The notes under the pieces: generated by a model
What the model was told of the DNA's origin: nothing
Databases searched by the model: none
The model's input: only the letters and a program-made list of their open reading frames with translations
Made by a program: the position numbers and the translations under genes
Source: an uncultured Eubacteriales bacterium
GTDB taxonomy: Bacteria; Bacillota; Clostridia; Oscillospirales; Acutalibacteraceae
Assembly: GCA_900317815.1 (NCBI GenBank)
Contig: ONIC01000096.1
Coordinates: forward strand, 6,012 to 70,011
Reading direction: 5' to 3'
Length of the DNA stretch: 64,000 bases
Shown here: piece by piece, positions 48,578 through 64,000 of the stretch
Layout of the letters: every line of letters begins with the position of its first letter
Numbering within the stretch: the stretch's first letter is position 1

Positions 48578-48668
48578 ATATTCTGTCCGTTTTTATGAAC
48601 AGAAATCTGCTGTGCGGGGGCACACAGCAGGGCAAATCCGATATTAATTACCGAAAGGAAGATCACTA

Positions 48669-50090
48669 ATGAAAAAAACTCTTTCCATACTCCTCGCGAT
48701 CGTAATGCTTTTCGCACTTTGTGTTACCGCATACGCTGAGAACGATGACGGATCAATCACCATCGACAATGCTGTAACCGGCGAGAAGTACAACGCTTAC
48801 AAGATCTTTGATCTTACTTACGACGACGACAATGTTACCTACACATATACGACAACAGGCGGCTCCGATGCTTTCCTCACAGCTCTCTCGGGCACAGCGT
48901 CCCCGTTTAATGCTGTTAAGGTCGGCACTACGGATGTTTACAGCATCACTAAGAAAACAGGCGTTACAGATGAGAGTGTTATAAGCTGGCTCAAGTCTCA
49001 CATCACAGACGTTGCCGCTTCGAACAAGCTTGCAGAGAAGACAGGCGCAAACAATGAAGCAAAGTGGGAAAATGTTGAGTACGGTTACTACTATGTAACA
49101 AGCTCCCTCGGTTCCGCTGTAACTGTAAACAGCGCAAAGAAGGACGTTACGATCAAGGACAAGAACTCGCCCGTTTCTGTTACAAAAAAGCAGAGCACAA
49201 CAAACGGCTCCAATTACACAACAGATGAGGTCTCCGCATCTATCGGCGATGAGGTATTCTACGAAGTAACTATCGTTGACGGCGAGGGTACAAATCTTGA
49301 GGTAACATTCACCGATACAATGACAGACGGTCTTACAAACCTCAAAAACTATGTACTTTACAAGAATTCCGTTGACAATGCAAATAAGCTTGCTTTGACG
49401 ACTAACTATACAGTAGAGAGTGAAGACGACCACGGCTTTACGCTTAAGATCAACGCAGCAACTCTTACATCTCTGAACAAGGATGAGAAGATTATCGCTC
49501 GTTACTCCGCTCGCGTAAATTCAAACGCTGTGACGAAGGCAAGCGGTAACAACACGAACACAGCTACAATAACATATTCTCATCAGACAACTACAACATC
49601 GGTAAATGTTACAACTTACAAGATCCAGATCGTAAAGGATAACGCAAACGGCAAGGGCGTTCTTGACGGTGCAACCTTCAGACTTTACGATGCACTCACA
49701 GGCGGCAACGAGATCAAGATTGTCAAGGATTCCGCAGGCAAATACCATGTTGACACACAGGCAGCCACAGGCGCTCTTATCGAGGCAGGTACACCTGTTA
49801 TCACAGGTCTCAAGGCAGGAACATACTACCTCGAAGAGGTCGATTCTCCTAAGGGCTTCAATAAGCTCACAGAGAGAAAGCCTGTAACTGTTTCCGCAGA
49901 TAATATCGCAAGAGTAAACAGCTCTGTTTATGTAAACGGCGGCGTTGAGGTGCAGAACTCCGCAGGTTCTTCGCTCCCCACAACGGGCGGCACAGGCACA
50001 ACGCTTCTCATTATCCTCGGTTCGTTCGCAGTTCTCACAACAGGCGTATTCCTTGTAGCCAACAAGCGTATGAAGAAGGAAATGCTCTGA
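48669..50090 (+). CDS. LPXTG backbone (major) pilin
   Basis: 473 aa. Signal peptide. N-terminal ITIDNAVTGEKYNAYKIFDL typical of isopeptide-forming fimbrial subunits. E-box-like YYLEEVDSPKGF. LPTTG sorting signal. Confidence 0.85.
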   Translation: MKKTLSILLAIVMLFALCVTAYAENDDGSITIDNAVTGEKYNAYKIFDLTYDDDNVTYTYTTTGGSDAFLTALSGTASPFNAVKVGTTDVYSITKKTGVTDESVISWLKSHITDVAASNKLAEKTGANNEAKWENVEYGYYYVTSSLGSAVTVNSAKKDVTIKDKNSPVSVTKKQSTTNGSNYTTDEVSASIGDEVFYEVTIVDGEGTNLEVTFTDTMTDGLTNLKNYVLYKNSVDNANKLALTTNYTVESEDDHGFTLKINAATLTSLNKDEKIIARYSARVNSNAVTKASGNNTNTATITYSHQTTTTSVNVTTYKIQIVKDNANGKGVLDGATFRLYDALTGGNEIKIVKDSAGKYHVDTQAATGALIEAGTPVITGLKAGTYYLEEVDSPKGFNKLTERKPVTVSADNIARVNSSVYVNGGVEVQNSAGSSLPTTGGTGTTLLIILGSFAVLTTGVFLVANKRMKKEML

Positions 50091-50191
50091 TCCGTCGGAT
50101 ATTGTTGTGCGGATAAGCTTTAACGATAACTATATTGCGGGAGATGCTCCTGTTTCGGAGTGTCTCCTGCAATAACAGCAGGGAGAAGCCA

Positions 50192-51037
50192 ATGAAGGTT
50201 CTTGGAAAAACTGTAACTCTGATATTACTTACGATTTTTTTCATTGGTTTCTGCGTACTGTTATATCCCGCAGTAAGTCAGTATTGGAACTCGAAGGTGC
50301 AGTCGCGCGTTGTTGTTGATTACACAAACGAAGTCGAGGAAATGGATCCCGAAATGCACGATAAGCTGCTTTCGCAGGCTGTTCATTATAATGAGCAATT
50401 GGCAGAGCTTGACGCGCCTCTCTTTTCGTATAACGAGATCGAAGGTTACGATACTTCGCTTGACCCGAGCGGAAACGGCGTTATGGGAGTTATATCTATA
50501 GATAAACTCAGAGTCGAGCTGCCGATCCGTCACACAACGAGCGATGACGTGCTGAGCAATTCATGCGGTCATCTTGAGGGAACATCGCTCCCTGTAGGAG
50601 GCAGATCCACTCACTGTGTTCTCTCGGCTCACCGGGGACTTCCGAGCGCAGAGTTGTTCACTCACCTTGATAAGATGGAGGTAGGCGATACCTTCACTAT
50701 CACAACTCTCGGTGATGTTCTGACTTATGAGGTGGAAAGCATTGTTGTCGTGCTTCCGAACGATTCCTCGCAGCTTGCCATAGAATACGGTGCCGACCGC
50801 TGTACGCTGCTGACATGTACGCCATACGGTATCAACACGCATCGCCTGCTTGTAAAAGGCGTCCGCATTGATACAGTCGATAAGAAGAAAATGAATATAA
50901 CAGCGGAGGCATACATTGTAGACCGCTTGATAGTTTCCGCGGCTGTTGCTTTACCGATATTGTTTGTTCTTATAGTAATTGTGATATTTAAGCCTGTAAA
51001 GAAAAATACTGAACTCGGAGGTAGAAGAGGATCGTGA
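50192..51037 (+). CDS. Class C (pilin-polymerising) sortase
   Basis: ATG at 50192. N- and C-terminal TM segments. Catalytic His (LSAHRG), TLLTCTP and a downstream Arg (THRLLV). Confidence 0.9.
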   Translation: MKVLGKTVTLILLTIFFIGFCVLLYPAVSQYWNSKVQSRVVVDYTNEVEEMDPEMHDKLLSQAVHYNEQLAELDAPLFSYNEIEGYDTSLDPSGNGVMGVISIDKLRVELPIRHTTSDDVLSNSCGHLEGTSLPVGGRSTHCVLSAHRGLPSAELFTHLDKMEVGDTFTITTLGDVLTYEVESIVVVLPNDSSQLAIEYGADRCTLLTCTPYGINTHRLLVKGVRIDTVDKKKMNITAEAYIVDRLIVSAAVALPILFVLIVIVIFKPVKKNTELGGRRGS

Positions 51038-52092
51038 TGAAAAAAAGCATAAAAATTCTCAGCACCGTGCTTGCTCTTACTGTCTTGATGACATCATTTG
51101 CTGCGCTTACAGCTTACGGTGACGAAAACGAGAAAAACGGTTCCGCACCCTCGGAATATAACATACTCAAAATATGGTATAAGGCGGATGATTATGTCCT
51201 CACTGACAAAGATATTTCGGTGTATCATATTGCGGATATATCGGCACAGGGAGATTTTTCATATACAGAAGACTTCATAGCTTGTAATATCGAAGTTGAC
51301 GAGCTTTATTCACGCGACAGCTTTGATTCGGTTACATCTGCGTTGTCGTCATATATCTCGCTTAACAGTGTTGCACCGTTTGAGACCGCTCCACTGAATA
51401 ACGAGGGCTGCGCCGTCTTTGAAGACCTGACACGCGGTGTCTATTTTGTAGACGGTTTCTCAGTCAAAAAAGACAGTCTCGCATATTCCTTTGGCTGTGT
51501 GCTTTTTAACTCGTTCTTTACAGAGGAAAAAGCAGATTCTTCCGAGGAAATAAATATTTATCCGAAGCATCAGACATATTCTGCCTCAGATGAAGAGTAC
51601 AGGTGTAAGGTCACAAAGCTCTGGAAAGACAACGGCAAGGAAAGCTCCCGTCCTCAGAGTATCGAGGTCGTTATTTTCAAAAACGGGGAAGAGGATCAGA
51701 GAGTTGTTTTGTCCGATGAAAACAACTGGACGTATTACTGGACAAGCTCCGATTCGGGCGCTGTCTGGAATGTCGCCGAGGTAAACGCTCCGAGCGCTTA
51801 TCGTTCGGAGGTAACGTTGAGCGGATACAATTTCAATATCATAAATTCGGTCATCAACAGCGATACTCCCGACACTCCGACATCTTCCGGGCCCACAGAC
51901 AGCAGCAAGGCTGATAATACGAGCAAACCCGTCTCTCCTGTTTCCAATACGAACGGCGGCAGCGCGTTTTCTCAGGCAGTAAAGACAGGCTTTATCACAA
52001 ATGTGTATTTCTGGATACTTCTGCTCACTGTATCCGGTACTGCTTTTATTCTTTTGAGTGTCGCAGGAAGACGCAAGGAGACTGAAGAATAA
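51037..52092 (+). CDS. Cna-B-domain minor/basal pilin with a non-canonical AVKTG sorting signal
   Basis: Its ATG overlaps the sortase stop (TGATG). Signal peptide. Cna-B-like KVTKLWKDNGKESSRPQSIEVVIFKNGE. C-terminus is QAVKTG, then a hydrophobic segment, then RRKETEE. Confidence 0.75.
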   Translation: MKKSIKILSTVLALTVLMTSFAALTAYGDENEKNGSAPSEYNILKIWYKADDYVLTDKDISVYHIADISAQGDFSYTEDFIACNIEVDELYSRDSFDSVTSALSSYISLNSVAPFETAPLNNEGCAVFEDLTRGVYFVDGFSVKKDSLAYSFGCVLFNSFFTEEKADSSEEINIYPKHQTYSASDEEYRCKVTKLWKDNGKESSRPQSIEVVIFKNGEEDQRVVLSDENNWTYYWTSSDSGAVWNVAEVNAPSAYRSEVTLSGYNFNIINSVINSDTPDTPTSSGPTDSSKADNTSKPVSPVSNTNGGSAFSQAVKTGFITNVYFWILLLTVSGTAFILLSVAGRRKETEE

Positions 52093-52649
52093 TGAAAAGA
52101 TCTTCAAAGAACACAATAATGACGATCATAGGAGCTCTGCTGCTGTTGTCCGCAGCGGGGCTTCTGCTGTTTACAAGGTACAGCGGCAGAATTTCTGAGG
52201 AGAAAAGCTCGGAATATCTGTCTGAATTCGATGAGATCGTTTACGGAGAAAAAGCTGCGCTCGACGGAATGTCGGGCGATATGCCTGTGCTTAGTATTGA
52301 TGGCATAGATATGATCGGGAAGATCGCCGTGCCGTCATACGGAGTATCAATTCCTGTTATGAATGAAAGCATCAATGGCGCAGTATTCCGTATCGTGGGA
52401 AGTCTTTATGATGGCGATCTCACAGTGGTCGGTTCATCGAAAGACCTGCTCTATTGTGCGCAGCAGATTACAACAGGCGATGAGCTTGATTTTACCGATG
52501 TTCAGGGAAACACCTATATTCTCGAAGCCGAGCGCATCTCACATTCGACCGGGCTGCCCGAGAATGAAACATTTGACTGCGATCTGACTCTGATAGTTAA
52601 AAATGAGCTTGATATGAGCTATATAGTGATCTGCTGCAATGAATCGTGA
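52092..52649 (+). CDS. Membrane-anchored sortase-like protein lacking the His/Cys/Arg catalytic residues
   Basis: Start overlaps the previous stop (TAATG). N-terminal TM segment. LSIDGIDMIGKIAVP resembles sortase beta1-beta2. GSSK replaces AHRG and LTLIVKN replaces TLLTCTP. Confidence 0.5.
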   Translation: MKRSSKNTIMTIIGALLLLSAAGLLLFTRYSGRISEEKSSEYLSEFDEIVYGEKAALDGMSGDMPVLSIDGIDMIGKIAVPSYGVSIPVMNESINGAVFRIVGSLYDGDLTVVGSSKDLLYCAQQITTGDELDFTDVQGNTYILEAERISHSTGLPENETFDCDLTLIVKNELDMSYIVICCNES

Positions 52650-52708: not shown

Positions 52709-53488
52709 TTAAACGGTGTCAAGTCCCGCTTTTTTTGCCTGTGTATGTTGTTGATCTCTCGGTATATCGTAGATCCTGCTGCCCTTTTTGAATTTTGCGC
52801 CTGTCTGGTGAAAATGAAATCCGACGCCGTATTCAACGCATTGCATATGTGAGCCGAGTATCCATGCAAAGTCGCACAGACGAGCGTTGGGACCCGATTC
52901 ACCGCCAACAGACACACATTCGATCAGTCCTCCGTATTTTTTCAGAAACGGACGTATATTGATGCTTTCAAGCATAGGCTCGTGTATTATTGATCTGTGC
53001 CTGAGCGGCAGTTCCAGAAAAATAGGCAGCCGTGTGTCTGCAAGCGCCTGGTTCTCACAAGTGCAGCAGATCTCGACATTTTCATAGCCGCAGCCCCAGT
53101 CGGAAGGCAGACATTCCCTTATACGCTCCGGTCTTTTCGTGATCATATAGAAAAAGCAATCGGAGCGTTGTCTCATTATGCTCCATGCATCCTGCCGCCA
53201 GAGATCGGCGTCCTTGTGAAAAAAATCAGAGGTAAAGCACGTCATAAAAGTCGTTCCGCTCGGGTATTTGTATTCACCTTTACGACTGCCTGTTCCGTGC
53301 CTTGAGATCGGCAGAGAAAAAGCGGTTGTCTTGTTCAGTACAGTAGTATCTTTTCCGTACTCGGCATCTCTGCGGTATACATAGCAGTTATAGCAGCCTG
53401 GGGAGATCTTTGTGCAGCCGTGCCACGGATTCCACGTCACCGTCTCGACAGCGGCGGACGCTTCGGGGAATAATGACAACTGATACAT
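52709..53488 (-). CDS. DUF5131 (phage Gp37/Gp68) family protein
   Basis: WNPWHGCTKISPGCYNCY N-terminal Cys motif, FTSDFFH, ITKRPERI and GGESGPNAR. The ATG at 53488 has AAGGAG upstream; an alternative ATG lies at 53509. Confidence 0.8.
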   Translation of the reverse strand: MYQLSLFPEASAAVETVTWNPWHGCTKISPGCYNCYVYRRDAEYGKDTTVLNKTTAFSLPISRHGTGSRKGEYKYPSGTTFMTCFTSDFFHKDADLWRQDAWSIMRQRSDCFFYMITKRPERIRECLPSDWGCGYENVEICCTCENQALADTRLPIFLELPLRHRSIIHEPMLESINIRPFLKKYGGLIECVSVGGESGPNARLCDFAWILGSHMQCVEYGVGFHFHQTGAKFKKGSRIYDIPRDQQHTQAKKAGLDTV

Positions 53489-53521
53489 ACGCCCGCCGCT
53501 CCTTTCCATAGTGGTTATCTA

Positions 53522-53785
53522 TCAGAAATAGTAATTGATGACCGAATCGATCGCTCCTACATATTCATATCCCGACTGCTTGTCAGACATCAAGCTGTAG
53601 CTTGTGTCGTTTTTGAACATGGAGAGTTTTCCTTCTCTGTAGGGTTCATCGGTTTTGACAAAAAGCAGCGCGTCTTCTCCGATGCCGTAATCCCTGAAGT
53701 TGATACTGTCCGTTGCTTTGATGAAAGAAACTGTGCTTGCTGGTCGTTTTCCCCCGTATGCCTGTGTAGTAGTCAGATTTGTCAT
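53522..53785 (-). CDS. 87-aa protein, possibly a stand-alone degenerate S24/LexA-like beta-domain
   Basis: Strong RBS (GGAGGAG) 8 nt upstream. By eye it is collinear with the C-terminal domain of the upstream XRE-S24 protein (see findings). Confidence 0.6.
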   Translation of the reverse strand: MTNLTTTQAYGGKRPASTVSFIKATDSINFRDYGIGEDALLFVKTDEPYREGKLSMFKNDTSYSLMSDKQSGYEYVGAIDSVINYYF

Positions 53786-53801
53786 AATATTGCTCCTCCT
53801 C

Positions 53802-54599
53802 TTATCCTCTGTTATTAACAGAAATATATTTTTCTATATCTCTTTTGCTTGCAAGATCCTCAGACTCGTCGATCACGCCTATTACCTTGCCGATGTAAAA
53901 CACATTATCCCAATCGTTGAATGTCATAGTGTCGTAGTTTTCGTTGAATGAGTGAAGACCGTCGCGCTGATACTGCTTGACGTATGTCTCATTGCCGACT
54001 ATAAAAGCGCCGATGTCGCCCGGATTTGGTTTCGGACAATTCGGATATCTCTGAACGAGCAGCAGATCTCCGCTGTGATAGACAGGTTCCATACTGTCAC
54101 CGTTGACCGTGAAAACGCAGTCGGCTCTTTCGACTTCCGGTGAGACGTAAAGATATATAGGCTCGTCGCTCTCCTCAAATTCGGTAGGATCTCCGATACC
54201 TGCGGCAAGCGATCGGCTGTAGTGTATCAGCTCCCTGATCTTCGGGATCTCCTTCTGCTCCTCAATGTACTTGAGCGACTTTATCGTATTATCCACAACA
54301 TACTTGTGATCTTCCTCGAGCGATCGGTAATCGCTCAGCAGAAGTTGTTCGCGTTTTGTATAGCGGAGCATAGGATCTGCTATATCGAATAATTCGTAAA
54401 GCGTGATCCCAAGAGCTTTGCAAAGAAGCGGCAGGGTGTCAACATCGGGTCGTGATCGTCCGTTCTCCCAGTTACTGATCGAATTGCCGACGACTCCGAC
54501 TCGTTTTCCAAGCTCCTTTTGTTCAAGTCCGAGCTTTTCGCGGTAATACTTGATACTTCTGCATACCGGTGACGGAGTTTTCTTTTCGTTTGAAGCCAT
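53802..54599 (-). CDS. XRE-family HTH repressor fused to an S24 (LexA/CI-like) autopeptidase domain
   Basis: HTH segment (LGLEQKELGKRVGVVGNSISNWENGRSRP). S24 Ser box (VNGDSMEP) and Lys box (ETYVKQY). Confidence 0.9.
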   Translation of the reverse strand: MASNEKKTPSPVCRSIKYYREKLGLEQKELGKRVGVVGNSISNWENGRSRPDVDTLPLLCKALGITLYELFDIADPMLRYTKREQLLLSDYRSLEEDHKYVVDNTIKSLKYIEEQKEIPKIRELIHYSRSLAAGIGDPTEFEESDEPIYLYVSPEVERADCVFTVNGDSMEPVYHSGDLLLVQRYPNCPKPNPGDIGAFIVGNETYVKQYQRDGLHSFNENYDTMTFNDWDNVFYIGKVIGVIDESEDLASKRDIEKYISVNNRG

Positions 54600-54849: not shown

Positions 54850-55599
54850 TTAAAGCTCGATGTAGTAGTTATAATTGTAGTTGCTGCCGAAGTTGTTAGC
54901 CCAGTACTCTGTGCCGTTTACTCTGTAGCAGATCGCATACTCGAAATTCTCATACTCTTCATAGCTGTTGATATCGCTGATATCAATGTATGTTGTCCAG
55001 AGCTCTGTGCCGTCATCGTTAGTGCTGTTGTAGGAGAGAGCCTGATCGCTGTAGGTGTTCCAGCCGTCCGTTGTAAATCTTACGAATACGTTCTTGTTGT
55101 AAGCGTAGTTCTGAAGAACAGCGTCGATACGATACTGTGTGTTGTCGTAGGAACGGAAGTTTCTCTTAGCAGCAACAGGTGCTGTGCCGAGCTTTGCGCC
55201 TGTGTAGTTCTGACCGTTGTTGTTGTCCCAGTATGTAACGCCGTCTGCAACATACTTGAGAACGTACTGGCAGCCGAGTGTGCCGAATGTTGCCTTCCAG
55301 ATCTTAGAGCCGTCGCCGAGTGTTGTTACATACTCAGCTTCGGCATCGCGCCAGCCTGCAGCGATGTTAGCGTAGTAGTGAACGTAAACTTCCTGATTCT
55401 GTGCGTTGTCCTTAGTCTGGATGTATACCTCGTATGACTCGGAACCCCAGTGGGAGAATGTTACGTCTGCCGAATAGAGGCTTACCTTATCTGTGTAAGC
55501 GTTTGCTGTAGTTGTACCTGCGATGCAGAACATGCTGAAGAGTACTGCGAGTGTAAGAAGCATAGCAGCTGCTCTGTTTGCCTTGAATGTCTTTTTCAT
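54850..55599 (-). CDS. Secreted protein made of two tandem CBM21-like (starch/glycogen-binding) modules
   Basis: ATG at 55599 follows GGAGGAG. Signal peptide. Each ~100-aa repeat ends in the CBM21 hallmark (GVTYWDNNNGQNY; FEYAICYRVNGTEYWANNFGSNY). Confidence 0.75.
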   Translation of the reverse strand: MKKTFKANRAAAMLLTLAVLFSMFCIAGTTTANAYTDKVSLYSADVTFSHWGSESYEVYIQTKDNAQNQEVYVHYYANIAAGWRDAEAEYVTTLGDGSKIWKATFGTLGCQYVLKYVADGVTYWDNNNGQNYTGAKLGTAPVAAKRNFRSYDNTQYRIDAVLQNYAYNKNVFVRFTTDGWNTYSDQALSYNSTNDDGTELWTTYIDISDINSYEEYENFEYAICYRVNGTEYWANNFGSNYNYNYYIEL

Positions 55600-55953
55600 T
55601 TTGATCTCCTCCATTTTGTTATGGACTGTTAACTAAGGGTTTTGTCTGTTCCCTTGGTGCGAGTATATAGTAACAGATGAGAAACCAAAAATCAAGCATT
55701 TTCAGACAATCTTCTTTTTAATCTATCTATTGGGTAAATTGAACTAATTATATATTGAGAATTTGTGCAACGTTACATTTTGATTGGTCAACTTACCTAA
55801 CACGACCAACCTGTGTTTGTGCATAGATGCCATACAAATGTGTGGAGATGATATTTTATAAAGAATATAAAAGACAAATCTTTCCCATTTGTTCAATGCA
55901 GTAAGTTAACAAAATATAACAATTTACGATCGGAACGTTCTTGGCATATCTGT

Positions 55954-56495
55954 TTATCTGAACCATTTATCCGCCGCAGTAGGTCTGTCATAACCCCAGT
56001 CTTCGGGGACAGCTTCGGCAGTCTTTAAAAATCCGTTCTTTTCGAGAACTCTTTCGGACGCTTGATTTTCTATCATCGTACTGGCTGTGATTATTTCTAT
56101 ATCGGTATTTGAATAAAGATAATCTACCATAAGAGCGACAGTCCTTGTAGCGATGCCTTTTCCCCAGAACTTAGGGGAAAGCCTGTAGCCGATACACGTT
56201 TTTTGTATCGACTCTTTATAACCGTAAAATTCCGCAAGTCCGCACAATGCTCCGCTGTCCTGAAGTACGATCCCGATATCAGAGATTCTTTTTCCTTAAA
56301 GCTCTTTTCGTAAAGCTCATATATCATAACTTTCATATCTCTGTATTGCTGCTCAAACAAAAAGGTAGGCAGGTATTGGTAGACATTTTTGTCATTTGAA
56401 AATTCGGCTAAGAATTCAGCGTCACTGTATTCCAGCTTTTTTAGTACTATCATTTCATCTTTTAACATCGGTATTTCCGAGAATAGTTTAATCAT
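55954..56495 (-). pseudogene. GNAT (RimJ/RimL-like) N-acetyltransferase interrupted by a frameshift
   Basis: The overlapping ORFs 56124-56495 and 55954-56247 together make one GNAT. The frames switch at an A5 run on the coding strand (plus-strand TTTTT, 56289-56293). Confidence 0.75.
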
Positions 56496-56691
56496 ACGAT
56501 CATCTCCCTTTCCTATTATAGCACATTTTCTGCGATCTGCTTATATATCTTAGAATTTGATTAAAAAAACATTAGATCTTGATTAAACTGTGGAACCGGA
56601 TACTTTTATGATGTATAATAAGCCTGATGAATATGAAAACAAGCTCATGTGATCGTTACTGCAGGTACTCAGAGCGACACGGCGGAAGGTA

Positions 56692-57501
56692 ATGACTATG
56701 TTAAAATATCCTATATTGTTAGTTCACGGAATGGGTTTTCGAGACAACGGTATAATCAATTATTGGGGACGGATACCGAAGATATTTACAGACGACGGGA
56801 ACGAGGTCTTCTACGGCGGTCAGGACAGCAACGGTACGATCGAGGACAATGCACAGATGCTCAGACGACGTATCAGAAGTCTGATCCGAGAAACAGGCTC
56901 CGAAAAGCTCAACGTGATAGCCCACTCAAAGGGCGGAATGGATATGCGCTACGCTATTTGTCAGCTCGGTATGGATAGATACGTTGCCTCGCTGACTACG
57001 ATCAACACACCGCACAACGGTTCAGGATCCATTGATAAGGTACTTATGCTGCCTTCTCCTCTCATCAGGTTTGCAGGCGGCTGCTCCGACTTGTGGCTGA
57101 GATTGCAGGGAGATAAAAACCCGAACGCATACAAGGTCTTTCAGTCGTTCTCTACGGAATACGCAAAGAAATTCAACGAAGAAAATCCCGACTTCCCCGA
57201 TATCTATTATCAAAGCTATGCCTGCGTTATGAAAAACAGCCTGAGCGATATTGTGATGATGATACCTCATGCAATAGTAAATGCTTTTGAGGGTGAAAAT
57301 GATGGTCTTCTCACCCCGGAAGCCGTAAAGCACGGCGACTTCAAGGGCGTTGTCCGCAGCAATTCTGTAAGAGGTATCTCGCACTGTGACGAGGTCGATA
57401 TGCGCCGCCGCAGATTTACCAAAAGACAGGGAGACGGAGTGTCCGATATTCTTGATATGTATCGTGAGATACTGCAAACATTAAAAGAAAAAAATCTGTG
57501 A
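56692..57501 (+). CDS. Alpha/beta-hydrolase lipase/esterase (LipA-like small lipase family)
   Basis: PILLVHGMGF oxyanion region and nucleophile elbow AHSKGG. Confidence 0.8.
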   Translation: MTMLKYPILLVHGMGFRDNGIINYWGRIPKIFTDDGNEVFYGGQDSNGTIEDNAQMLRRRIRSLIRETGSEKLNVIAHSKGGMDMRYAICQLGMDRYVASLTTINTPHNGSGSIDKVLMLPSPLIRFAGGCSDLWLRLQGDKNPNAYKVFQSFSTEYAKKFNEENPDFPDIYYQSYACVMKNSLSDIVMMIPHAIVNAFEGENDGLLTPEAVKHGDFKGVVRSNSVRGISHCDEVDMRRRRFTKRQGDGVSDILDMYREILQTLKEKNL

Positions 57502-57547
57502 AAATAAGTCGGAATGACAGCTTCAAAACGAATAGACAAGCTGACTG

Positions 57548-57590
57548 CGGCACCCTTCCTGTTAAAGGTCGGGTGCTGTTTTCGTTATTC
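57548..57590 (+). terminator. Terminator after the lipase gene
   Basis: CGGCACCC / GGGTGCTG stem (one G-U pair) followed by TTTTCGTT. Confidence 0.55.
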
Positions 57591-57626
57591 TGACTAAATT
57601 GACGGACAATTTTTTTATGCTTCGAC

Positions 57627-57683
57627 ATATTGACACGGTGTCACAATAAATGTATAATAATTATAACGACACAATGTCAATAT
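57627..57683 (+). promoter_or_regulatory. Promoter of the flavin/flavodoxin operon with overlapping palindromes
   Basis: TTGACA (57630-57635), 17-nt spacer, TATAAT (57653-57658). Palindrome TGACAC-G-GTGTCA over the -35. A 9-bp inverted repeat (ATATTGACA ... TGTCAATAT) brackets the promoter. Confidence 0.55.
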
Positions 57684-57712
57684 ATCTTTTACAGATCGAG
57701 GAGAGATGACTT

Positions 57713-58648
57713 ATGAAGAGATTACCGAAAATAGCTCTCGGAGCATGGGCGTGGGGAAATGACGGAACATTCGGCGGCGAGCTTTCATCGGAAACGCTTC
57801 GCCCGATATTTGATACGGCAATGAAAAACGGACTCAACCTCTGGGATACTGCTTACGCTTACGGTATGGGAACATCGGAAAAGGTACTTGCGGGATTTGT
57901 CAGAGAGCTTCCGAGAGACGCTTACCTGATCTCGGATAAGTTCACTCCGCAGTGCGCCGACGGCAGCTCACCGAATGCAATGAGCGATATGATCGGTATG
58001 CAGCTTGAGCTTATGGGACTCGACAGCTTTGATATTTATTGGATCCACAACGTATGGGACGCACCGAAATGGACACAGGAGCTTGCAAAGTATTATGAGG
58101 GCAAGGAGAATGTTCCGCTGCTCGGCGTTTCTAATCACAACCTTGCAGAGATCAAGCAGGCTGATGAGATCTTAAAGTCGCATGGACTAAAGCTGTCTGC
58201 CGTTCAAAATCATTACAGTCTTATCAACCGTTCTTCTGAGAAATCCGGAATACTTGATTATTGCAGAGAGAATGACATTACATTTTTCTCGTATATGGTA
58301 CTTGAGCAGGGCGCTCTCTCGGGCAAGTATGACACATCTCATCCGATGCCTGACGGTTCTGCAAGAGCGCAGACCTACAATCCCGTTCTCGATAAGCTCG
58401 AGATACTGAACACAGAGCTTAAGAGACTTGCCGATAAATACTCGGTCGGCGCGGCGCAGATACCTGTTGCGTGGGCGATCGCGAAGGGAACGCTTCCGAT
58501 CATCGGCGTTACAAAGACGAGCCACGTTGAAGACGCAGTAAAGGCTGCTGATGTTGTTCTGAGCAGCGAAGAGACAGCGGAGCTTGAAGCGCTTGCGGAC
58601 AGTCTCAACATCAATGCGATCCGTTTTTGGGAAAAGGAGATGAAGTGA
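57713..58648 (+). CDS. Aldo/keto reductase
   Basis: 311 aa. LWDTAYAYG motif with the catalytic Asp/Tyr region, and the typical AKR C-terminus. Confidence 0.9.
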   Translation: MKRLPKIALGAWAWGNDGTFGGELSSETLRPIFDTAMKNGLNLWDTAYAYGMGTSEKVLAGFVRELPRDAYLISDKFTPQCADGSSPNAMSDMIGMQLELMGLDSFDIYWIHNVWDAPKWTQELAKYYEGKENVPLLGVSNHNLAEIKQADEILKSHGLKLSAVQNHYSLINRSSEKSGILDYCRENDITFFSYMVLEQGALSGKYDTSHPMPDGSARAQTYNPVLDKLEILNTELKRLADKYSVGAAQIPVAWAIAKGTLPIIGVTKTSHVEDAVKAADVVLSSEETAELEALADSLNINAIRFWEKEMK

Positions 58649-58649
58649 T

Positions 58650-59195
58650 ATGAAAAAGAATATCGGAGCAGTTTTGGCGCTCTATCCATGCCCCGTAATA
58701 GTAGTGGGCGCTATGGTTCAAGGTAAGCCGAGCTGGACGCTTGCAGCTCATGCGGGCATCGTTGCTCACTCACATCTTATGGTGTCGCTCGTTTCGGCGC
58801 ATTATATCAACAAGGGGATACGTGAGAACAAGGTCTTTTCTGTAAACATCGTTGACGCATCGTGGCTTAAAGAAGCCGATAAAATGGGAATTGTCAGCGG
58901 AAACAAAACAGACAAGTCGGGCGAATTTGCATATTCAATCGGAGAAAACGGCGCTCCGCTGATCGACAAGGCTAAGGTGTCGATTGAGTGCGAAGCGGAC
59001 GGAAACTACGAGCTTGAACATTTCGATAATTTTATCAGCAAGATACTTGCGACATATGCCGATGAAGAAGTCCTGAATGAACAGGGAAAGATCGACTATC
59101 ACACGTTCAAGCCTGCGCTTTTCGAGTTTCCAACGTATGAATACTTTGCCGCAGGAGAAAAACTGGGCGACTGCGGGAAGATGAATAAAGAATGA
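58650..59195 (+). CDS. Flavin reductase-like (FMN-binding split-barrel) protein
   Basis: 181 aa. Flavoredoxin-like beginning (LYPCPVIVVGAMVQGKP). Starts 1 nt after the AKR stop. Confidence 0.8.
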   Translation: MKKNIGAVLALYPCPVIVVGAMVQGKPSWTLAAHAGIVAHSHLMVSLVSAHYINKGIRENKVFSVNIVDASWLKEADKMGIVSGNKTDKSGEFAYSIGENGAPLIDKAKVSIECEADGNYELEHFDNFISKILATYADEEVLNEQGKIDYHTFKPALFEFPTYEYFAAGEKLGDCGKMNKE

Positions 59196-59236
59196 TAAGA
59201 TCACAGAATACGAGTAATTGAAAGGGGATCTCTTGT

Positions 59237-60019
59237 ATGAAAAGGACAGTTCTTTTGATTGCGGCATTACTTTGCGTTTTCTGGCTCTCAGCCTGCGGCA
59301 GTGCGCAGAAAAGCGAGGTATCGGCGCAGGGAGATGTGTCATCTGCAATGTCAAAGCAGGAGACGACGGAAAGCGCGAAAGTCTCTGAAGACTCCGAAGC
59401 CGCGAATGCAATTTCATCGACCGATGCGTCAGACAGCAAAACAGAGAGTAAGTCGGATATCAAAACCGAAAAGATCGACTCGGAAGACAGCGAGACGGTC
59501 GTCAGCGAAAGCAGCAGTATTGCTTCCGTTTCCGAGGAGACGGCTTCGGATAATACCGTGGTGGTGTACTTCTCGGCAACAGGTACTACTCGCGGCGTTG
59601 CAGAGCGTATCGCTTCTGTTACAAATGCCGATCTATACGAGATAGTCCCTGCTGAACCGTACAGCGATGCCGATCTCGACTGGAACGACAAAGACAGCCG
59701 CACTACTCTTGAAATGAACGATCCCGATATCCGCCCTGCGATCGCAGATGATACTATAGATCTCAGCGGATATACGACGGTATATATCGGTTATCCGATA
59801 TGGTGGGGAGACGCTCCGCGAATTATGAGTACGTTCGTAGAGTCCCACAGCTTCGACGGTATGACGGTTATACCGTTCTGTACATCGGGCGGCAGCAGTA
59901 TAGGAAGAAGCGGAGATAACCTCGCATCTCAGGCGGGCAGCGGCAACTGGCTCCCGGGCGACAGGCTTGACGGCGGGATCTCGGAGGAAGAGATAGAAAA
60001 CTGGATAAGCGGATCATAA
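59237..60019 (+). CDS. Lipoprotein-anchored flavodoxin (extracytoplasmic)
   Basis: Signal peptide with lipobox LSAC. A Ser/Glu/Asp/Thr-rich linker of about 85 aa. Flavodoxin domain (VVYFSATGTTRGVAERI...GYPIWWGDAPRI...IPFCTSGGS). Confidence 0.85.
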   Translation: MKRTVLLIAALLCVFWLSACGSAQKSEVSAQGDVSSAMSKQETTESAKVSEDSEAANAISSTDASDSKTESKSDIKTEKIDSEDSETVVSESSSIASVSEETASDNTVVVYFSATGTTRGVAERIASVTNADLYEIVPAEPYSDADLDWNDKDSRTTLEMNDPDIRPAIADDTIDLSGYTTVYIGYPIWWGDAPRIMSTFVESHSFDGMTVIPFCTSGGSSIGRSGDNLASQAGSGNWLPGDRLDGGISEEEIENWISGS

Positions 60020-60034
60020 TAGGGAGTGATCGTC

Positions 60035-60757
60035 ATGAAGACAAAGACAAGCAATACCATAAAAAGAGCAGTCGATGTCATATTGACGATCCTTCTGCTT
60101 TTTCTGACAGCGTATCAGGTGACGGGAGAAATGCTGCATGAGTGGTTCGGAATCGCAATGACTGTCCTGCTGATCGTACATCATGTGCAAAACAGAAAAT
60201 GGTACGGCGCATTGTTCAAAGGAAAGTACAATCCGTACCGCATTACCCTGACTGCTCTAAATACGCTTTTGCTTTTGTCGATAGCTATGACAGCGCTCAG
60301 CGGAATGTCTATGAGCTGTCATGCGGTACCGTTTATGTACGGCTTTATAGATGTTATGACGGCAAGACGTCTTCATCTTGCTGTGTCATACTGGACGTTC
60401 ATCTTTATGGGCGTTCACATAGGGCTGCATATCAGGACTATGACCGCAAAGCTCGGCGAAAAAAAGACGATGATCCTGAACATCGTATTCACGATCTTGT
60501 CGGGCGCAGGGCTGTGTCTGTTTCTGCGAGCAGGGATAGTGAACTATATTCTTTTCAGAACGCACTTTGCTTTCCTCGATTACGAGACTCCGAAGTGGCT
60601 CGTTATATTTGAAAACCTTGCAATGCTCCTTTTCTGGGCGCTGATCGGGTATACAGCCGCTCTCATATCACAGAAAAAGGGTGAAAAATACACTGCAAAA
60701 CCGCTTTTGCTGCCGACCGCTGCCGTTTTTATCGGCGTACTGCTTTATCTTGCTTAA
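60035..60757 (+). CDS. DUF4405-type polytopic membrane protein
   Basis: ATG at 60035 follows AGGGAG. Multiple TM helices with conserved-looking His residues (LHEWFG, LLIVHHVQNRKWY, GVHIGLHI). Confidence 0.75.
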   Translation: MKTKTSNTIKRAVDVILTILLLFLTAYQVTGEMLHEWFGIAMTVLLIVHHVQNRKWYGALFKGKYNPYRITLTALNTLLLLSIAMTALSGMSMSCHAVPFMYGFIDVMTARRLHLAVSYWTFIFMGVHIGLHIRTMTAKLGEKKTMILNIVFTILSGAGLCLFLRAGIVNYILFRTHFAFLDYETPKWLVIFENLAMLLFWALIGYTAALISQKKGEKYTAKPLLLPTAAVFIGVLLYLA

Positions 60758-60794
60758 AATAAAAAATTACCCCGAAAATGAGGTGCAACGTATT

Positions 60795-61328
60795 ATGAAG
60801 ATAGTTATACTTTTTGCAAGTCCGAATTCAAACGGTTCAACGAGCATTCTTGTGAACAGCTTTAAAAGCGGCGCACAGGAAAGCGGCCACAGCGTTGAGA
60901 TCATTGACGTATGTCGGCTGAAGATCTCTCCTTGTACAGGCTGTGTTGCCTGCGGTTATGAGGGAGAATGTGTTCAGCATGACGATAACGGCAAGATCAG
61001 GAATAGCCTTCTGTCGTGTGATATGGTCGTTTTCGCAACGCCTCTTTATTATTATGGTATGTCGGCTCAATTGAAAGCTGTTATTGATCGTTTTTGCGCT
61101 TATAACAGCAGTCTGAACAGAAGACATCTGAAATCGGCTCTGCTTGCCGTTGCGTGGAACACCGCAGACTGGACGTTTGAAGCGCTCTCGGTTCATTATA
61201 AAACTCTCGTTCGTTACATTGGTCTCGAGGATATGGGTATGGTGCTTGGTTTCGGCTGCGGAACGCCTTCAATGACAAGATCGGGAAAATATCCCAAGGC
61301 CGCTTACGATCTTGGCAGATCGCTGTAA
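60795..61328 (+). CDS. Iron-sulfur flavoprotein-like NAD(P)H-dependent FMN reductase
   Basis: ATG at 60795. MKIVILFASPNSNGST flavodoxin-like start and a compact Cys cluster (CTGCVACGYEGEC). Confidence 0.8.
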   Translation: MKIVILFASPNSNGSTSILVNSFKSGAQESGHSVEIIDVCRLKISPCTGCVACGYEGECVQHDDNGKIRNSLLSCDMVVFATPLYYYGMSAQLKAVIDRFCAYNSSLNRRHLKSALLAVAWNTADWTFEALSVHYKTLVRYIGLEDMGMVLGFGCGTPSMTRSGKYPKAAYDLGRSL

Positions 61329-61342
61329 GGGAGGGTAACAGA

Positions 61343-62515
61343 ATGAAAAAAAGAATCTTTTCTGCTGTTATGATCGCTGCTGTTTCAGCCGTTTTGTTTC
61401 CGCTTTTTGTATCTGCCGAAACGAGTGGACCGACAAATGATATGTACGGCGACATTGATTACGATGGTATAATATCTTCTGCGGACGCATTGCAGGTGCT
61501 GCGCTGCAGTGTCGGAACAGACGAGTATGATACTGTGCAGCAGGGCCTGTCGGATATTGACGACGACGGGAGTATCACAGCATCCGATGCTCTCGATATC
61601 CTGCGGTACAGCGTCGGTCTGAGCGTTGAGACTAAGGTCGGACGAGATGTAGACGGCTCACAAAAAACGGATCAAAAGAAAACACTTGTGGCGTACTTCT
61701 CCCGAACGGGAAATACAGAAACAGTGGCGGACTATATAATCGAGCTGACAAACGCAGACAGATTTGTGATCGAGGCGGCAGACCCGTATTCCGATGCCGA
61801 TATAGAGTATAATAGCGACTGCCGCGCAAACCGCGAGCAGAATGACAAATCAGTACGACCCGAGATCAAAGGTAAAATAGACGATATATCACAATACGAT
61901 ACGATCTATCTCGGCTACGCAATATGGTGGGGGCAGGAGCCTCGGATAATTGATACCTTCCTGGAGAGCTACGATTTTTCCGATATTACTGTTATACCGT
62001 TCTGTACTTCGGCAAGCTCAGGCATTTCCGCAAGCGAACGCAATATCAGAGAACTTGGTGTTGAGTTCGGTGAATTAAAGACGGGAAGACGTTTTGCGAT
62101 AGGCAGCACGAGGGAGCAGATCTCCGAGTGGGTCGGGGAAATATCTCCGACAAGGCAGAGCGACGTTGTATATGCGCACATCGGTGAAAATACGCTGCCG
62201 ATAAAGCTTGAAGACAATTCCTCGGCAAGAGCGTTTGAAGAACTGCTGAAAAACGGTGATCTGACTTTGAAAATGGACGATTACGGGAATTTTGAGAAAG
62301 TAGGCGAGCTCGGTTTTGCGCTTGAGAGAAACGACGAGGATATAACCACCGTTCCAGGCGACTTAATTCTTTATCAAGGTGATAAGATAACTATTTATTA
62401 TGATATCAACAGCTGGAGCTTTACAAGGCTCGGACATATACAGGGTAAATCGCAGGAGGAACTCAGATCAATACTCGGAAGCGGAAGCGTTACCGTGATA
62501 TTCAGTCTCAGATAA
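61343..62515 (+). CDS. Secreted dockerin - flavodoxin - cyclophilin-like three-domain protein
   Basis: Signal peptide (VSAETS). Duplicated dockerin Ca-binding segments (GDIDYDGIISSADALQVLR, SDIDDDGSITASDALDILR). Flavodoxin domain (VAYFSRTGNTE...GYAIWWGQEPRI...IPFCTSASS). C-terminal cyclophilin-like domain (LEDNSSARAFEELL...GDLILYQGDKITIYY...GSGSVTVIFS). Confidence 0.85.
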   Translation: MKKRIFSAVMIAAVSAVLFPLFVSAETSGPTNDMYGDIDYDGIISSADALQVLRCSVGTDEYDTVQQGLSDIDDDGSITASDALDILRYSVGLSVETKVGRDVDGSQKTDQKKTLVAYFSRTGNTETVADYIIELTNADRFVIEAADPYSDADIEYNSDCRANREQNDKSVRPEIKGKIDDISQYDTIYLGYAIWWGQEPRIIDTFLESYDFSDITVIPFCTSASSGISASERNIRELGVEFGELKTGRRFAIGSTREQISEWVGEISPTRQSDVVYAHIGENTLPIKLEDNSSARAFEELLKNGDLTLKMDDYGNFEKVGELGFALERNDEDITTVPGDLILYQGDKITIYYDINSWSFTRLGHIQGKSQEELRSILGSGSVTVIFSLR

Positions 62516-62527
62516 TGTATCACATAA

Positions 62528-62549
62528 CACCGCTCCGATCGGGGCGGTG
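62528..62549 (+). terminator. Hairpin after the flavodoxin operon (weak U-tract)
   Basis: CACCGCTCC-GATC-GGGGCGGTG. Confidence 0.45.
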
Positions 62550-62687
62550 CATCGTTATATTCCGGGCAGAATAATGTGCGCTCGCACGATCTGAAGATCG
62601 GACGTTTTTGAGATATCACACCTGAGCCATAATACAAAGTCGATTCAAAGATGACATTTATGTCAGCCGGTCTCGTCTGTATTTGTG

Positions 62688-62716
62688 TTGCATTGAGTCA
62701 TATTGTGTGATATAAT
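62688..62716 (+). promoter_or_regulatory. Promoter for the LRR-dockerin gene, leaving a leader of about 130 nt
   Basis: TTGCAT, 17-nt spacer, TATAAT. Confidence 0.55.
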
Positions 62717-62851
62717 ACGGGTAATATGTTTATAAACCTGAAGAAAAGAGCTGCGGGACAGCCTGACGAAGCTGCCTGACAAAAATACCGATCGGAGTCT
62801 GAAAAATGCTGCGTTCGGTCAAGCTTTACACGAATACAGAAAGGTTGGTCG

Positions 62852-63916
62852 ATGGATATGAAAAAGTATTTCGGAAAGTTCCTCTGCCTGATCGCTGCAG
62901 CGGCGATCTTTGCGGGGACGTTCCAATTTGCTGCCGCAGCCGATGGGGCAGATGCGATACACGGCAGCTTCGGTGATTACGATTACGAGCTGCTCGACGA
63001 CGGCACGGTATCTGTCACATATTACAGGGGACACGACTCGGACGTGAAGCTGCCAAATCTCATAGACGGCAAACCTGTAACGCAGATAGCAAGAGGAGCA
63101 TTTGCTGCCTGCTCTGCAATAAAAAGCGTAACGATCCCCGACTCTGTTACAAAGATCTGCAGCAGCGCATTTGCCGTTTGCGATTCGCTTGAATATGTGA
63201 GTATCCCCGACAGTGTGACCGAAATCGAAATGGACGCATTCTATCTGACAAAGTGGATCGACAGCTTTGAAGGTGATTTTTTGATCGCAGGCAAAGGTAT
63301 ACTTTTGAAATATAAGGGAGACAGCCCGAGTGTGGTCATTTCTGATAATGTCCGTGTAATAGGCTGCGGCGCTTTGTCGGATCATACCGAGCTTAAAAGC
63401 GTGACTATACCCGATTCGGTCGAAATCGTGGACGCTCTTGCTTTTTATCATACAGGTCTTGAAAAGGTCACGATACCCAATTCCGTTACGAGGATAGGAG
63501 AAAGCGCGTTCAGCCGATGCAGCGGTCTTACAAGCATTTTTATCCCGTCCACAGTAAAGGAGATCGGAGAAAGCGCATTTTCATTGTGCGATGAATTAAC
63601 TGCGGAATGCCGCCGGGGTTCCGCAGCAGAAGCATATTGTAAGGAGAATGATATCCCGTTTGAAGCAAGCGAGGGAGAGGACCTTCCGCCCGAAAAAGAG
63701 GAGCCAAAACCGACACGCACGGGTGATATCGACGGCGACGGAGAGATAACCTCCAACGACGCTTTGATGATACTTCGCTCAAGCGTGGGTGCGTTTGAGC
63801 TGACTCAATCGCAAAAATCTGCTGCCGACACTGACTCGGACCGTGAGATAACGTCAAATGACGCATTGAAGGTGCTGCGGTTCAGTATCGGAGCGATCGT
63901 CTCGTTCGATCAATAA
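62852..63916 (+). CDS. Secreted BspA-type leucine-rich-repeat protein with a C-terminal dockerin
   Basis: Signal peptide. Repeated ...SVTIPDSVT.I...AF..C..L... units. C-terminal GDIDGDGEITSNDALMILR / DTDSDREITSNDALKVLR. Confidence 0.85.
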   Translation: MDMKKYFGKFLCLIAAAAIFAGTFQFAAAADGADAIHGSFGDYDYELLDDGTVSVTYYRGHDSDVKLPNLIDGKPVTQIARGAFAACSAIKSVTIPDSVTKICSSAFAVCDSLEYVSIPDSVTEIEMDAFYLTKWIDSFEGDFLIAGKGILLKYKGDSPSVVISDNVRVIGCGALSDHTELKSVTIPDSVEIVDALAFYHTGLEKVTIPNSVTRIGESAFSRCSGLTSIFIPSTVKEIGESAFSLCDELTAECRRGSAAEAYCKENDIPFEASEGEDLPPEKEEPKPTRTGDIDGDGEITSNDALMILRSSVGAFELTQSQKSAADTDSDREITSNDALKVLRFSIGAIVSFDQ

Positions 63917-63928
63917 AAGCAAAAATAA

Positions 63929-63976
63929 ACGGTGCGATGTTTACTGCTTTTGCAGAACACCGCACCGTGTTTTTTT
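63929..63976 (+). terminator. Rho-independent terminator after the LRR-dockerin gene
   Basis: ACGGTGCG / CGCACCGT outer stem with inner CTGC/GCAG pairing, followed by GTTTTTTT. Confidence 0.8.
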
Positions 63977-64000
63977 ATTTATCTTACGCAGACCTTGGAC

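Follow-up and report, generated by a model that had tools for sequence, protein, structure and literature searches.

Do six adjacent genes that combine cytoplasmic flavoproteins, a polytopic membrane protein and two flavodoxins carrying export signals encode a route by which electrons leave the cell? The question is raised by an operon in a stretch of 64,000 nucleotides of contig ONIC01000096.1 from an uncultured Eubacteriales bacterium, the whole of which was analysed and is called the window here. The operon encodes, in this order, an aldo/keto reductase (AKR, gene 1), a flavoredoxin-like protein (gene 2), a lipoprotein with a Flavodoxin_4 domain (gene 3), a DUF4405 membrane protein (gene 4), a short FMN_red protein (gene 5) and a secreted protein with dockerin, Flavodoxin_4 and cyclophilin-like domains (gene 6). 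The original prediction, made from the sequence of this stretch, had read the gene set as a transmembrane electron relay with no assigned function and no described relation. The core of that reading held and its novelty did not, since clusters of DUF4405, apbE, Flavodoxin_4 and flavin transporter genes have been published as a putative apparatus of extracytosolic electron transfer (Huang, Meheust, Barquera, Light 2024, mSystems; PMC11334425). On the evidence given below, the operon is probably a repressor-controlled unit that conducts electrons outward over flavins and heme to extracytoplasmic flavodoxins, a reading that we favour with some reserve.

The nearest named relatives of the operon proteins are from Ruminococcus. 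When 185,579 species genomes were scanned with an alignment of DUF4405, 221 related stretches were obtained and the best 80 (L001-L080) were kept, most of them from Ruminococcus flavefaciens and R. albus, others from Lachnospiraceae, Mogibacterium and Solobacterium. The six window proteins were mapped onto these loci and all neighbouring open reading frames (ORFs) were clustered; the denominators of the synteny counts are the loci with enough sequence for the comparison. In 57 of 74 loci, the gene directly upstream of DUF4405 encodes a Flavodoxin_4 protein like that of gene 3 (at least 55% identical), and the N-terminus of the upstream flavodoxin is of the lipobox type in 42 related loci. Downstream of DUF4405, 22 of 52 loci have an FMN_red orthologue; upstream of it, 21 of 61 have an AKR orthologue that is at least 50% identical (any AKR, 37 of 61), and the flavoredoxin and the cyclophilin-like part are occasional, at 4 of 22 loci each. 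As the flavodoxin-DUF4405 pair is near-constant and the other genes come and go, the conserved unit is, judged from these comparisons, the lipoprotein flavodoxin together with DUF4405, surrounded by a variable shell of other genes, and not the six-gene set. The claim that the six genes form a functional set was thus upheld in part: order and orientation are kept in dozens of genomes of several families, but the conserved core comprises the flavodoxin and DUF4405 only.

Fusion proteins were also found among these loci. DUF4405 is C-terminally fused to a domain resembling sulfatase-activating formylglycine-generating enzyme (FGE) in 26 of 80 loci, and single proteins of the order DUF4405-FGE-like-Flavodoxin_4 are encoded in 16 of 80, as confirmed with Pfam for R. 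flavefaciens 007c (L009, 10001-12169). Among solved structures, the FGE-like domain is closest to TvpA, a surface protein of Treponema denticola (2Y3C). An identity of this domain with FGE itself was rejected, for both catalytic Cys positions are replaced, by Asp and Met, in a manual alignment to what we take to be the FGE active-site motif. An apparent fusion of DUF4405 to FMN_red in L068 was likewise rejected, as a deletion remnant made of a truncated FGE-like stretch and the last 25 residues of FMN_red. Secreted Flavodoxin_4-FGE-like-Flavodoxin_4 proteins were observed in L017 and L018. Separately, in loci of the Lachnospiraceae type (L053, L055, L057, L060, L072, L073, L075 and L078), genes for a DUF362 lipoprotein and an ArsP_1-family permease stand beside DUF4405, directly downstream or a few genes off, or, in L053 and L078, upstream; the window has no such pair.

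The membrane step would be taken by the gene 4 protein, which belongs to DUF4405 (PF14358, 28.9 bits against a cut-off of 26.7), a family of 2,575 clusters at 50% identity (E ≤ 0.001) in a library of 1.8 billion proteins. Seven transmembrane (TM) helices were predicted, and the AlphaFold2 (AF2) model has a predicted local distance difference test (pLDDT) score of 77.6 and a predicted template modelling score (pTM) of 0.74. The predicted loops hold 16 Lys and Arg residues inside and 4 outside, and the N-terminus is predicted to lie inside and the C-terminus outside, in agreement with the exported domains that are fused past TM7 in relatives. Of the eight His residues, H49, H96, H128 and H132 are invariant among 19 sequences, and conservation reaches at least 90% for H35, H114 and H177. 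Two pairs of them, H35/H49 on TM2 and H114/H128 on TM4, are each 14 residues apart. A 14-residue spacing of His residues on two helices is the way in which cytochromes b hold two hemes, one near each membrane face, and His35/His49 and His114/His128 are therefore predicted as the ligands of two b hemes. A DUF4405 protein of an Oscillospiraceae bacterium (MBD5117352.1) was purified and found to contain heme b by pyridine hemochrome analysis (PMC11334425). By analogy with this family member, heme b is also predicted in the gene 4 protein; MBD5117352.1 was not among the homologue cluster members examined.

On the outer side, the N-terminus of the gene 3 protein (MKRTVLLIAALLCVFWLSAC) fits the PROSITE lipobox rule, with signal and lipobox at residues 1-20 (Cys20). 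It is followed by a linker of 85 residues (21-105) with 24 Ser, 20 Asp and Glu and a net charge of -13, and by the Flavodoxin_4 domain (residues 107-258), which has the FMN loop YFSATGTT and is colinear with the profile with no insertion. The protein also scores 200 bits in NCBIfam NF005501, above the cut-off of 198. The earlier description of gene 3 as a lipoprotein with an acidic, Ser-rich linker and a flavodoxin domain was thereby confirmed. In the gene 6 protein, MKKR, a hydrophobic stretch of 19 residues and VSA|E make up a predicted Sec-type signal peptide (residues 1-25). All three of its domains exceed the Pfam cut-offs (Dockerin_1, 4e-6; Flavodoxin_4, 2e-39; Cyclophil_like2, 4e-21). 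The dockerin is of type I (residues 35-86, 27.3 bits against a cut-off of 22.9), with the calcium loops DIDYDGIISSAD and DIDDDGSITASD at residues 37-48 and 71-82; the Flavodoxin_4 domain (residues 113-266, loop YFSRTGNT) is again colinear with the profile, and Cyclophil_like2 covers residues 280-387. From the sequence rules and the conservation of the lipobox in the 42 loci, the Flavodoxin_4 domains of genes 3 and 6 are inferred to lie outside the cytoplasm.

No gaps interrupt the alignment of either Flavodoxin_4 domain to 4J8P, 3KLB and 4ICI, which are FMN-binding proteins of Bacteroides. In the AF2 model of the gene 6 protein (pLDDT 82), the flavodoxin domain superposes on 4ICI, 4J8P and 3KLB with a template modelling score of ~0.9, and 3KLB holds FMN. 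The S-x-T-G-x-T phosphate loop, a WW pair and a TSxSSG loop are invariant in 24 homologues. Both domains appear to carry an ordinary, non-covalent FMN loop, and FMN binding is predicted for them. The C-terminal domain of gene 6 superposes on the atypical cyclophilins TM1367 (1ZX8) and AF2241 (2NNZ) with a template modelling score of ~0.65. In relatives, Cyclophil_like2 is fused to Flavodoxin_4 or to AKR (L053, L058 and L062 for the latter), indicating that the domain accompanies redox enzymes; this suggests that it serves them, perhaps as a substrate-binding module.

Proteins with Flavodoxin_4 and Cyclophil_like2 are very common in Ruminococcus and always stand behind a signal peptide, so an exported Flavodoxin_4 is ordinary in this group and no oddity of the window. 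The form with a dockerin recognised by Pfam is rare, with 4 clusters among 120 listed matches, and in some gene 6 homologues Big_2 domains are present along with two flavodoxin domains. In R. flavefaciens homologues of gene 6 (P0174, P0240, P0160 and P0165), an N-terminal segment YDLNGDDRWDVYDLCIMRREVL was noticed that looks by eye like a divergent dockerin half-site; a dockerin assignment was not upheld, with no Pfam Dockerin_1 match even at E ≤ 1. Literature searches on dockerins combined with flavodoxins and on extracellular electron transfer in the rumen returned nothing relevant.

On the cytoplasmic side, a signal peptide was found in none of the products of genes 1, 2 and 5. No NCBIfam equivalog was reached by gene 1. 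Gene 2 is homologous over its full length to solved flavoredoxins (3BNK, 1e-22, residues 9-178; 2D5M, 3.5e-17), and its Flavin_Reduct match begins at residue 12; its hydrophobic N-terminus is accordingly assigned, from the profile alignment, to the Flavin_Reduct fold and not to a signal peptide. The description of gene 2 as a flavin-reductase-like split barrel stood as to the fold (PF01613), but with flavoredoxins as its closest relatives it would be an FMN electron carrier and not necessarily an NAD(P)H:flavin reductase. Gene 5 had been taken for an iron-sulfur-flavoprotein-like FMN reductase, and this was supported by its FMN_red match (4e-22) and by the motif CTGCVACGYEGEC (CX2CX2CX5C, residues 47-59), which is kept in 23 of 23 orthologues and is a candidate 4Fe-4S site. 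Its best solved relative is the N-terminal domain in gut flavone reductase FLR (7D38, 1e-10, with residues 12-101 aligned). An identity with FLR was rejected, because the protein (177 aa against 310 aa) is without the C-terminal half and tail that form the flavone pocket, the tail being required for substrate binding.

Whether these genes respond to a common signal was read from the head of the operon, where two operators, O1 and O2, are placed within and just after the promoter core (Table 1). The O1 palindrome occurs once in the whole window against 0.05 matches expected by chance, and O2 has one mismatch to the O2 consensus of the relatives (TGACACgATGTCA). A palindrome of the form TGACAC-N-GTGTCA was found at the operon head in 59 of 80 related loci, mostly paired; the spacing of the pairs is 36 bp in 40 of 45, equal to that of the window, and in those 40 loci the promoter around the operators is conserved as well (consensus taTTGACACnGTGTCAgAATagTGcTAtAaT...TGACACgaTGTCAgaata). 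A TetR gene (TetR_N and TetR_C_34) is present in 48 of 80 related loci, usually among the first genes after the cassette, and in L021 it lies apart, preceded by a cassette copy of its own. No TetR homologue was found within the 64-kb window, though the operators are present; the repressor gene therefore either lies outside the window or has been lost. Comparison of the relatives' TetR proteins with solved structures gave generic matches only and no hint of a ligand. The dual operator, common to 59 of 80 loci, indicates that the gene set forms one inducible regulon, and a defined promoter-operator together with a repressor family provides a handle for finding the inducer and thereby the physiological acceptor.

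In the proposed route, reducing power would enter through the iron-sulfur-flavoprotein-like FMN_red protein, the flavoredoxin or both, with the AKR as a co-regulated NAD(P)H enzyme. The membrane would be crossed through the two b hemes of DUF4405, with His35/His114 as the outer and His49/His128 as the inner ligands. At the outer face, electrons would be accepted by the non-covalent FMN of the lipoprotein flavodoxin, which may swing on its acidic tether of 85 residues, and the secreted flavodoxin/cyclophilin-like protein would pass them on or work in parallel, placed by its dockerin on a cohesin scaffold (cellulosome). The final acceptor would be some extracellular oxidant; a quinone-like or electrophilic plant compound, or O2, is most pointed to, as suggested by the type of regulator and by the companions in relatives (TetR, AKR, CMD-cupin and ABM). 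Of this scheme, the order of the genes, their domains and export signals, the synteny, the fusions, the His pattern and the operators were observed in the sequences, and heme b binding by a family member comes from the literature; which protein is the cytoplasmic donor, which way the electrons flow, how one flavodoxin hands over to the other and what accepts them at the end are parts that we infer.

Several observations weigh against such a conduit. A Foldseek search of the DUF4405 model against the PDB returned no significant solved homologue (best E 0.16, with TRP channels at the top); sensible matches stand lower in the ranking, also not significant, namely the di-heme cytochromes b FdnI of formate dehydrogenase-N (1KQF_C; probability 0.99, template modelling score 0.46, E 0.5) and HyaC of hydrogenase-1 (6G94_A), so that the likeness of the gene 4 fold to di-heme cytochromes b is weak. 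The export of the gene 3 and gene 6 products is deduced solely from sequence rules, and retention of FMN outside the cell is unproven because the window has neither apbE nor a flavinylation motif. The cytoplasmic genes are loosely linked to the core (FMN_red 42%, AKR 34-61%, flavoredoxin 4/22), no fusion of a cytoplasmic flavoprotein to DUF4405 was found among the related loci, and the AKR, flavoredoxin and FMN_red proteins might each serve detoxification on their own. Such enzymes would form a co-regulated detoxification regulon, in which each acts alone on an inducing electrophile, quinone, aldehyde or oxidant sensed through TetR, and only the flavodoxin and DUF4405 make up a redox module, fed for example by the quinone pool or another dehydrogenase. 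This explanation, which we consider unlikely but the strongest of the alternatives, is in keeping with the modular gene content, where Flavodoxin_4-DUF4405 is the sole near-constant pair, with the missing fusion, with the plant-flavone reductase as the closest solved relative of gene 5, and with the companions of the relatives, which are typical of such sets (TetR as counted above, CMD-cupin in 29 of 80 loci, ABM and a second AKR; no CMD-cupin homologue was found in the window). It is opposed by the short gap of 37 nt that separates gene 4 from gene 5 and by the shared promoter-operator, by FMN_red orthologues that are 75-80% identical and immediately follow DUF4405 in many loci, and by the fully conserved Fe-S-type Cys motif of FMN_red, which is suited to one-electron transfer to heme.

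The same exported flavodoxin folds might instead scavenge FMN, riboflavin or heme from rumen fluid, with DUF4405 as a transporter or heme handler. Flavodoxin folds bind FMN tightly, the heme-binding flavodoxin FldH (8G64) is among the fold matches of gene 6, and lipoprotein binding proteins are the rule for Gram-positive uptake systems. The operon, however, contains no ABC or ECF transporter gene; DUF4405 has the bis-His spacing of di-heme cytochromes and includes a member purified with a heme b cofactor (PMC11334425); the fusions of Flavodoxin_4 to DUF4405 and to redox partners such as the AKR-linked cyclophilin-like domains fit catalysis better; and the dockerin is predicted to put the gene 6 product on a scaffold away from the membrane. 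Acquisition of flavin or heme is accordingly a quite improbable function. That the genes are chance neighbours or separate transcripts with no shared function is hardly credible. Promoter-like and terminator-like matches do occur inside the region at the frequency of shuffled sequence, but this explanation is already contradicted by order and orientation kept in dozens of genomes of several families, by the fusion proteins, by the conserved promoter-operator at the head, and by the recurrence of the same six genes on independent rumen contigs. The outward electron conduit thus remains the reading that we prefer.

Table 1. Genes and transcription signals of the operon, in positions of the window.
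Feature	Position	Strand	Evidence or remark
Promoter, sigma-70 type: -35 TTGACA (57630-57635), 17-nt spacer, -10 TATAAT (57653-57658)	57630..57658	+	
Operator O1, perfect palindrome TGACACGGTGTCA	57631..57643	.	overlaps -35 hexamer
Operator O2, CGACACAATGTCA	57667..57679	.	36 bp past O1, just downstream of -10
Gene 1, aldo/keto reductase, 311 aa, predicted cytoplasmic	57713..58648	+	PF00248, 3e-49
Gene 2, flavoredoxin-like FMN-binding split-barrel protein, 181 aa, predicted cytoplasmic	58650..59195	+	PF01613, 2e-11
Gene 3, lipoprotein with Flavodoxin_4, 260 aa	59237..60019	+	PF12682, 1.5e-56
Gene 4, DUF4405 membrane protein, 240 aa	60035..60757 (alternative GTG start 60026)	+	PF14358, 1.7e-6
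Gene 5, short FMN_red/flavodoxin-like protein, 177 aa, predicted cytoplasmic	60795..61328	+	PF03358, 4e-22
Gene 6, secreted dockerin + Flavodoxin_4 + Cyclophil_like2 protein, 390 aa	61343..62515	+	Pfam; export predicted
Hairpin CACCGCUCC-GAUC-GGGGCGGUG, GC-rich, 13 nt past gene 6 stop	62528..62549	+	probable terminator, weak U tract

The layout of the operon agreed with the original prediction in its main structural claims. The ORF list bears out six co-directional genes (57713-62515) with gaps of 1-41 nt, which are 1, 41, 15 (6 from the upstream GTG), 37 and 14 nt from gene 1 to gene 6, and the domain calls for all six genes were recovered in every case by Pfam profile search. For gene 5, the ATG at 60795 was chosen over the GTG at 60681 of the mechanical ORF, in agreement with a GAGGTG ribosome-binding site and with the gene calls on other contigs. 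The single consensus promoter proposed ahead of the operon is the sole 12/12 match (TTGACA-17-TATAAT) within 55000-64000, where the total number of promoter-like sites is not above that in shuffles. The 71 nt that include the hairpin (62510-62580) have a folding energy of -22.5 kcal/mol (z = -2.1), and 336 nt separate the end of the operon from the next gene. At 47.6%, the G+C content of the operon is the same as in the window at large and shows no sign of recent horizontal transfer. The six-gene set recurs in all longer contigs of the same organism, from independent cattle rumen metagenome samples, which makes the host a bacterium of the rumen. On one rumen metagenome contig of this organism (L082, 2536-4260), FMN_red and the dockerin-flavodoxin protein were called as a single product of 574 aa, explained perhaps by a read-through variant, by misassembly or by a frameshift error.

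The surroundings of the operon were also inspected. Just upstream of its neighbourhood, a DUF5131 protein and an HTH_3 and Peptidase_S24 (LexA/CI-like) repressor are encoded on the minus strand (52709-54599), which may be a mobile-element remnant. A sortase-pilin cluster (SpaA-type, Sortase and Cna_B) and a secreted CBM_21 starch-binding protein occupy 45116-52649 and 54850-55614. Downstream, the next gene (62852-63916) encodes a protein with LRR_5 and Dockerin_1 domains, and upstream of it a palindrome with a different spacer (TGACATTTATGTCA, 62652-62665) lies near a promoter-like TATAAT; it is a candidate only, whose kinship to the operator family described above is not established. The pilin cluster, the CBM_21 protein and the two dockerin proteins indicate a surface-active, polysaccharide-attached lifestyle.

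Among known systems, the one described by Huang et al. is the closest. Its clusters occur in Oscillospiraceae and other Firmicutes and were reported by the same laboratory as the Listeria system; its Flavodoxin_4 bears the flavinylated Ser/Thr on an insertion that follows strand 1 and precedes helix 1, and the covalent attachment was proposed to prevent the loss of extracellular flavins (PMC11334425). The present operon shares the core of PF14358 and PF12682, hosts of the Oscillospiraceae type, an extracytoplasmic flavodoxin and DUF4405 as the proposed transmembrane heme b wire. It differs in that a phmmer search with Escherichia coli ApbE, run on all six-frame ORFs from the window and from 86 loci (1.2 Mb), found no apbE in the window and none in 79 of the 80 related neighbourhoods. 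The one match is in L040, an ApbE lipoprotein (PF02424, 287 bits). Both flavodoxins of the window, unlike those of Huang et al., have a plain S-x-x-G-x-T loop with no insertion, as do 100 of 113 domains in relatives, and the operon is without a flavin transporter gene. It has in addition the iron-sulfur-flavoprotein-like FMN_red, the flavoredoxin, the AKR, a flavodoxin with dockerin and cyclophilin-like domains, and the dual-operator cassette, with TetR in relatives. In L040 (4971-9233) and in L018 (8842-13053), both from Ruminococcus, the described covalent form stands alongside the present one, and flavodoxins with an insertion of 20-30 residues and DATTSASIV-like motifs are encoded downstream of the same DUF4405 gene. 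These loci hold both types of flavodoxin, indicating that the covalent and non-covalent forms can coexist in one locus.

These differences bear on how extracellular electron transfer is understood in this group. In Gram-positive gut bacteria it has so far been tied to covalent attachment of flavin by ApbE. Most of the rumen relatives examined combine the same cytochrome family with ordinary, apparently non-covalent flavodoxins and have no nearby apbE, which bears on the published idea that flavins must be covalently attached to be retained outside the cell. How widespread such exported flavodoxins are beside this cytochrome is the chief contrast to the published system. Candidate cytoplasmic donors for DUF4405, which were unnamed in the 2024 study, are provided by the operon as well, and the dockerin on a flavoprotein suggests that the cellulosomes of strict anaerobes may carry redox modules besides hydrolases. 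A more far-reaching proposal, put forward here as speculation and doubtful in its full extent, is that fibre-degrading Clostridia of the rumen perform an ApbE-independent extracellular electron transfer, in which a di-heme DUF4405 protein fed by an iron-sulfur flavoprotein would reduce non-covalent flavodoxins, some tethered to the membrane and others built into the cellulosome through dockerins; the whole would serve as an inducible reductase for quinone-like plant compounds or O2 under a dedicated TetR acting on paired TGACAC-N-GTGTCA operators. If this were true, redox chemistry would be a function of the cellulosome.

The flavin-based extracellular electron transfer (FLEET) locus of Listeria monocytogenes consists of Ndh2, EetA, EetB, FmnA, FmnB/ApbE, PplA and DmkA/B. 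It had been noted before that the window operon has no obvious component in common with this FLEET locus, and indeed all six genes belong to other Pfam families and none is ApbE. The two are alike in outline, for in both a Gram-positive cell would bring cytoplasmic reducing power to a lipoprotein that carries flavin at the membrane's outer face. In the window, unlike in Listeria, the membrane step would be taken by a predicted di-heme protein and not by quinone and EetA/B, and the flavin is predicted to be non-covalently bound in a flavodoxin fold and not covalently in an FMN_bind domain. The passage from a cytoplasmic flavin reductase through two bis-His b hemes to a partner across the membrane is also the plan of the NOX-like MsrQ-Fre of E. 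coli and of eukaryotic NOX/FRE. Gene 4, however, is not a Ferric_reduct protein (PF01794) by Pfam and has seven predicted helices, and the outer partner is a flavodoxin instead of the molybdoenzyme MsrP, for which the operon has no gene; it resembles MsrQ-Fre and NOX in outline without being a member. DUF4405, MsrQ-like and PepSY-like models were reported to share a two-heme core (PMC11334425).

For the cytoplasmic donor, the comparison is with the iron-sulfur flavoprotein (Isf) family. Gene 5 shares with it a flavodoxin-like FMN fold and a compact Cys motif of the CX2CX2CX5C form. In this family, which includes the Isf of Methanosarcina thermophila, a 4Fe-4S cluster is bound by CX2CX2CX4-7C, and Isf acts as a reductase of O2 and H2O2. 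In contrast to this likeness, sequence searches gave no link of gene 5 to solved Isf, and a cluster or such an activity would be putative in the gene 5 protein. Taken by its gene content, domain structure and operators, the operon is best described as an ApbE-independent, dockerin-bearing and dual-operator-controlled variant of the system described in 2024.

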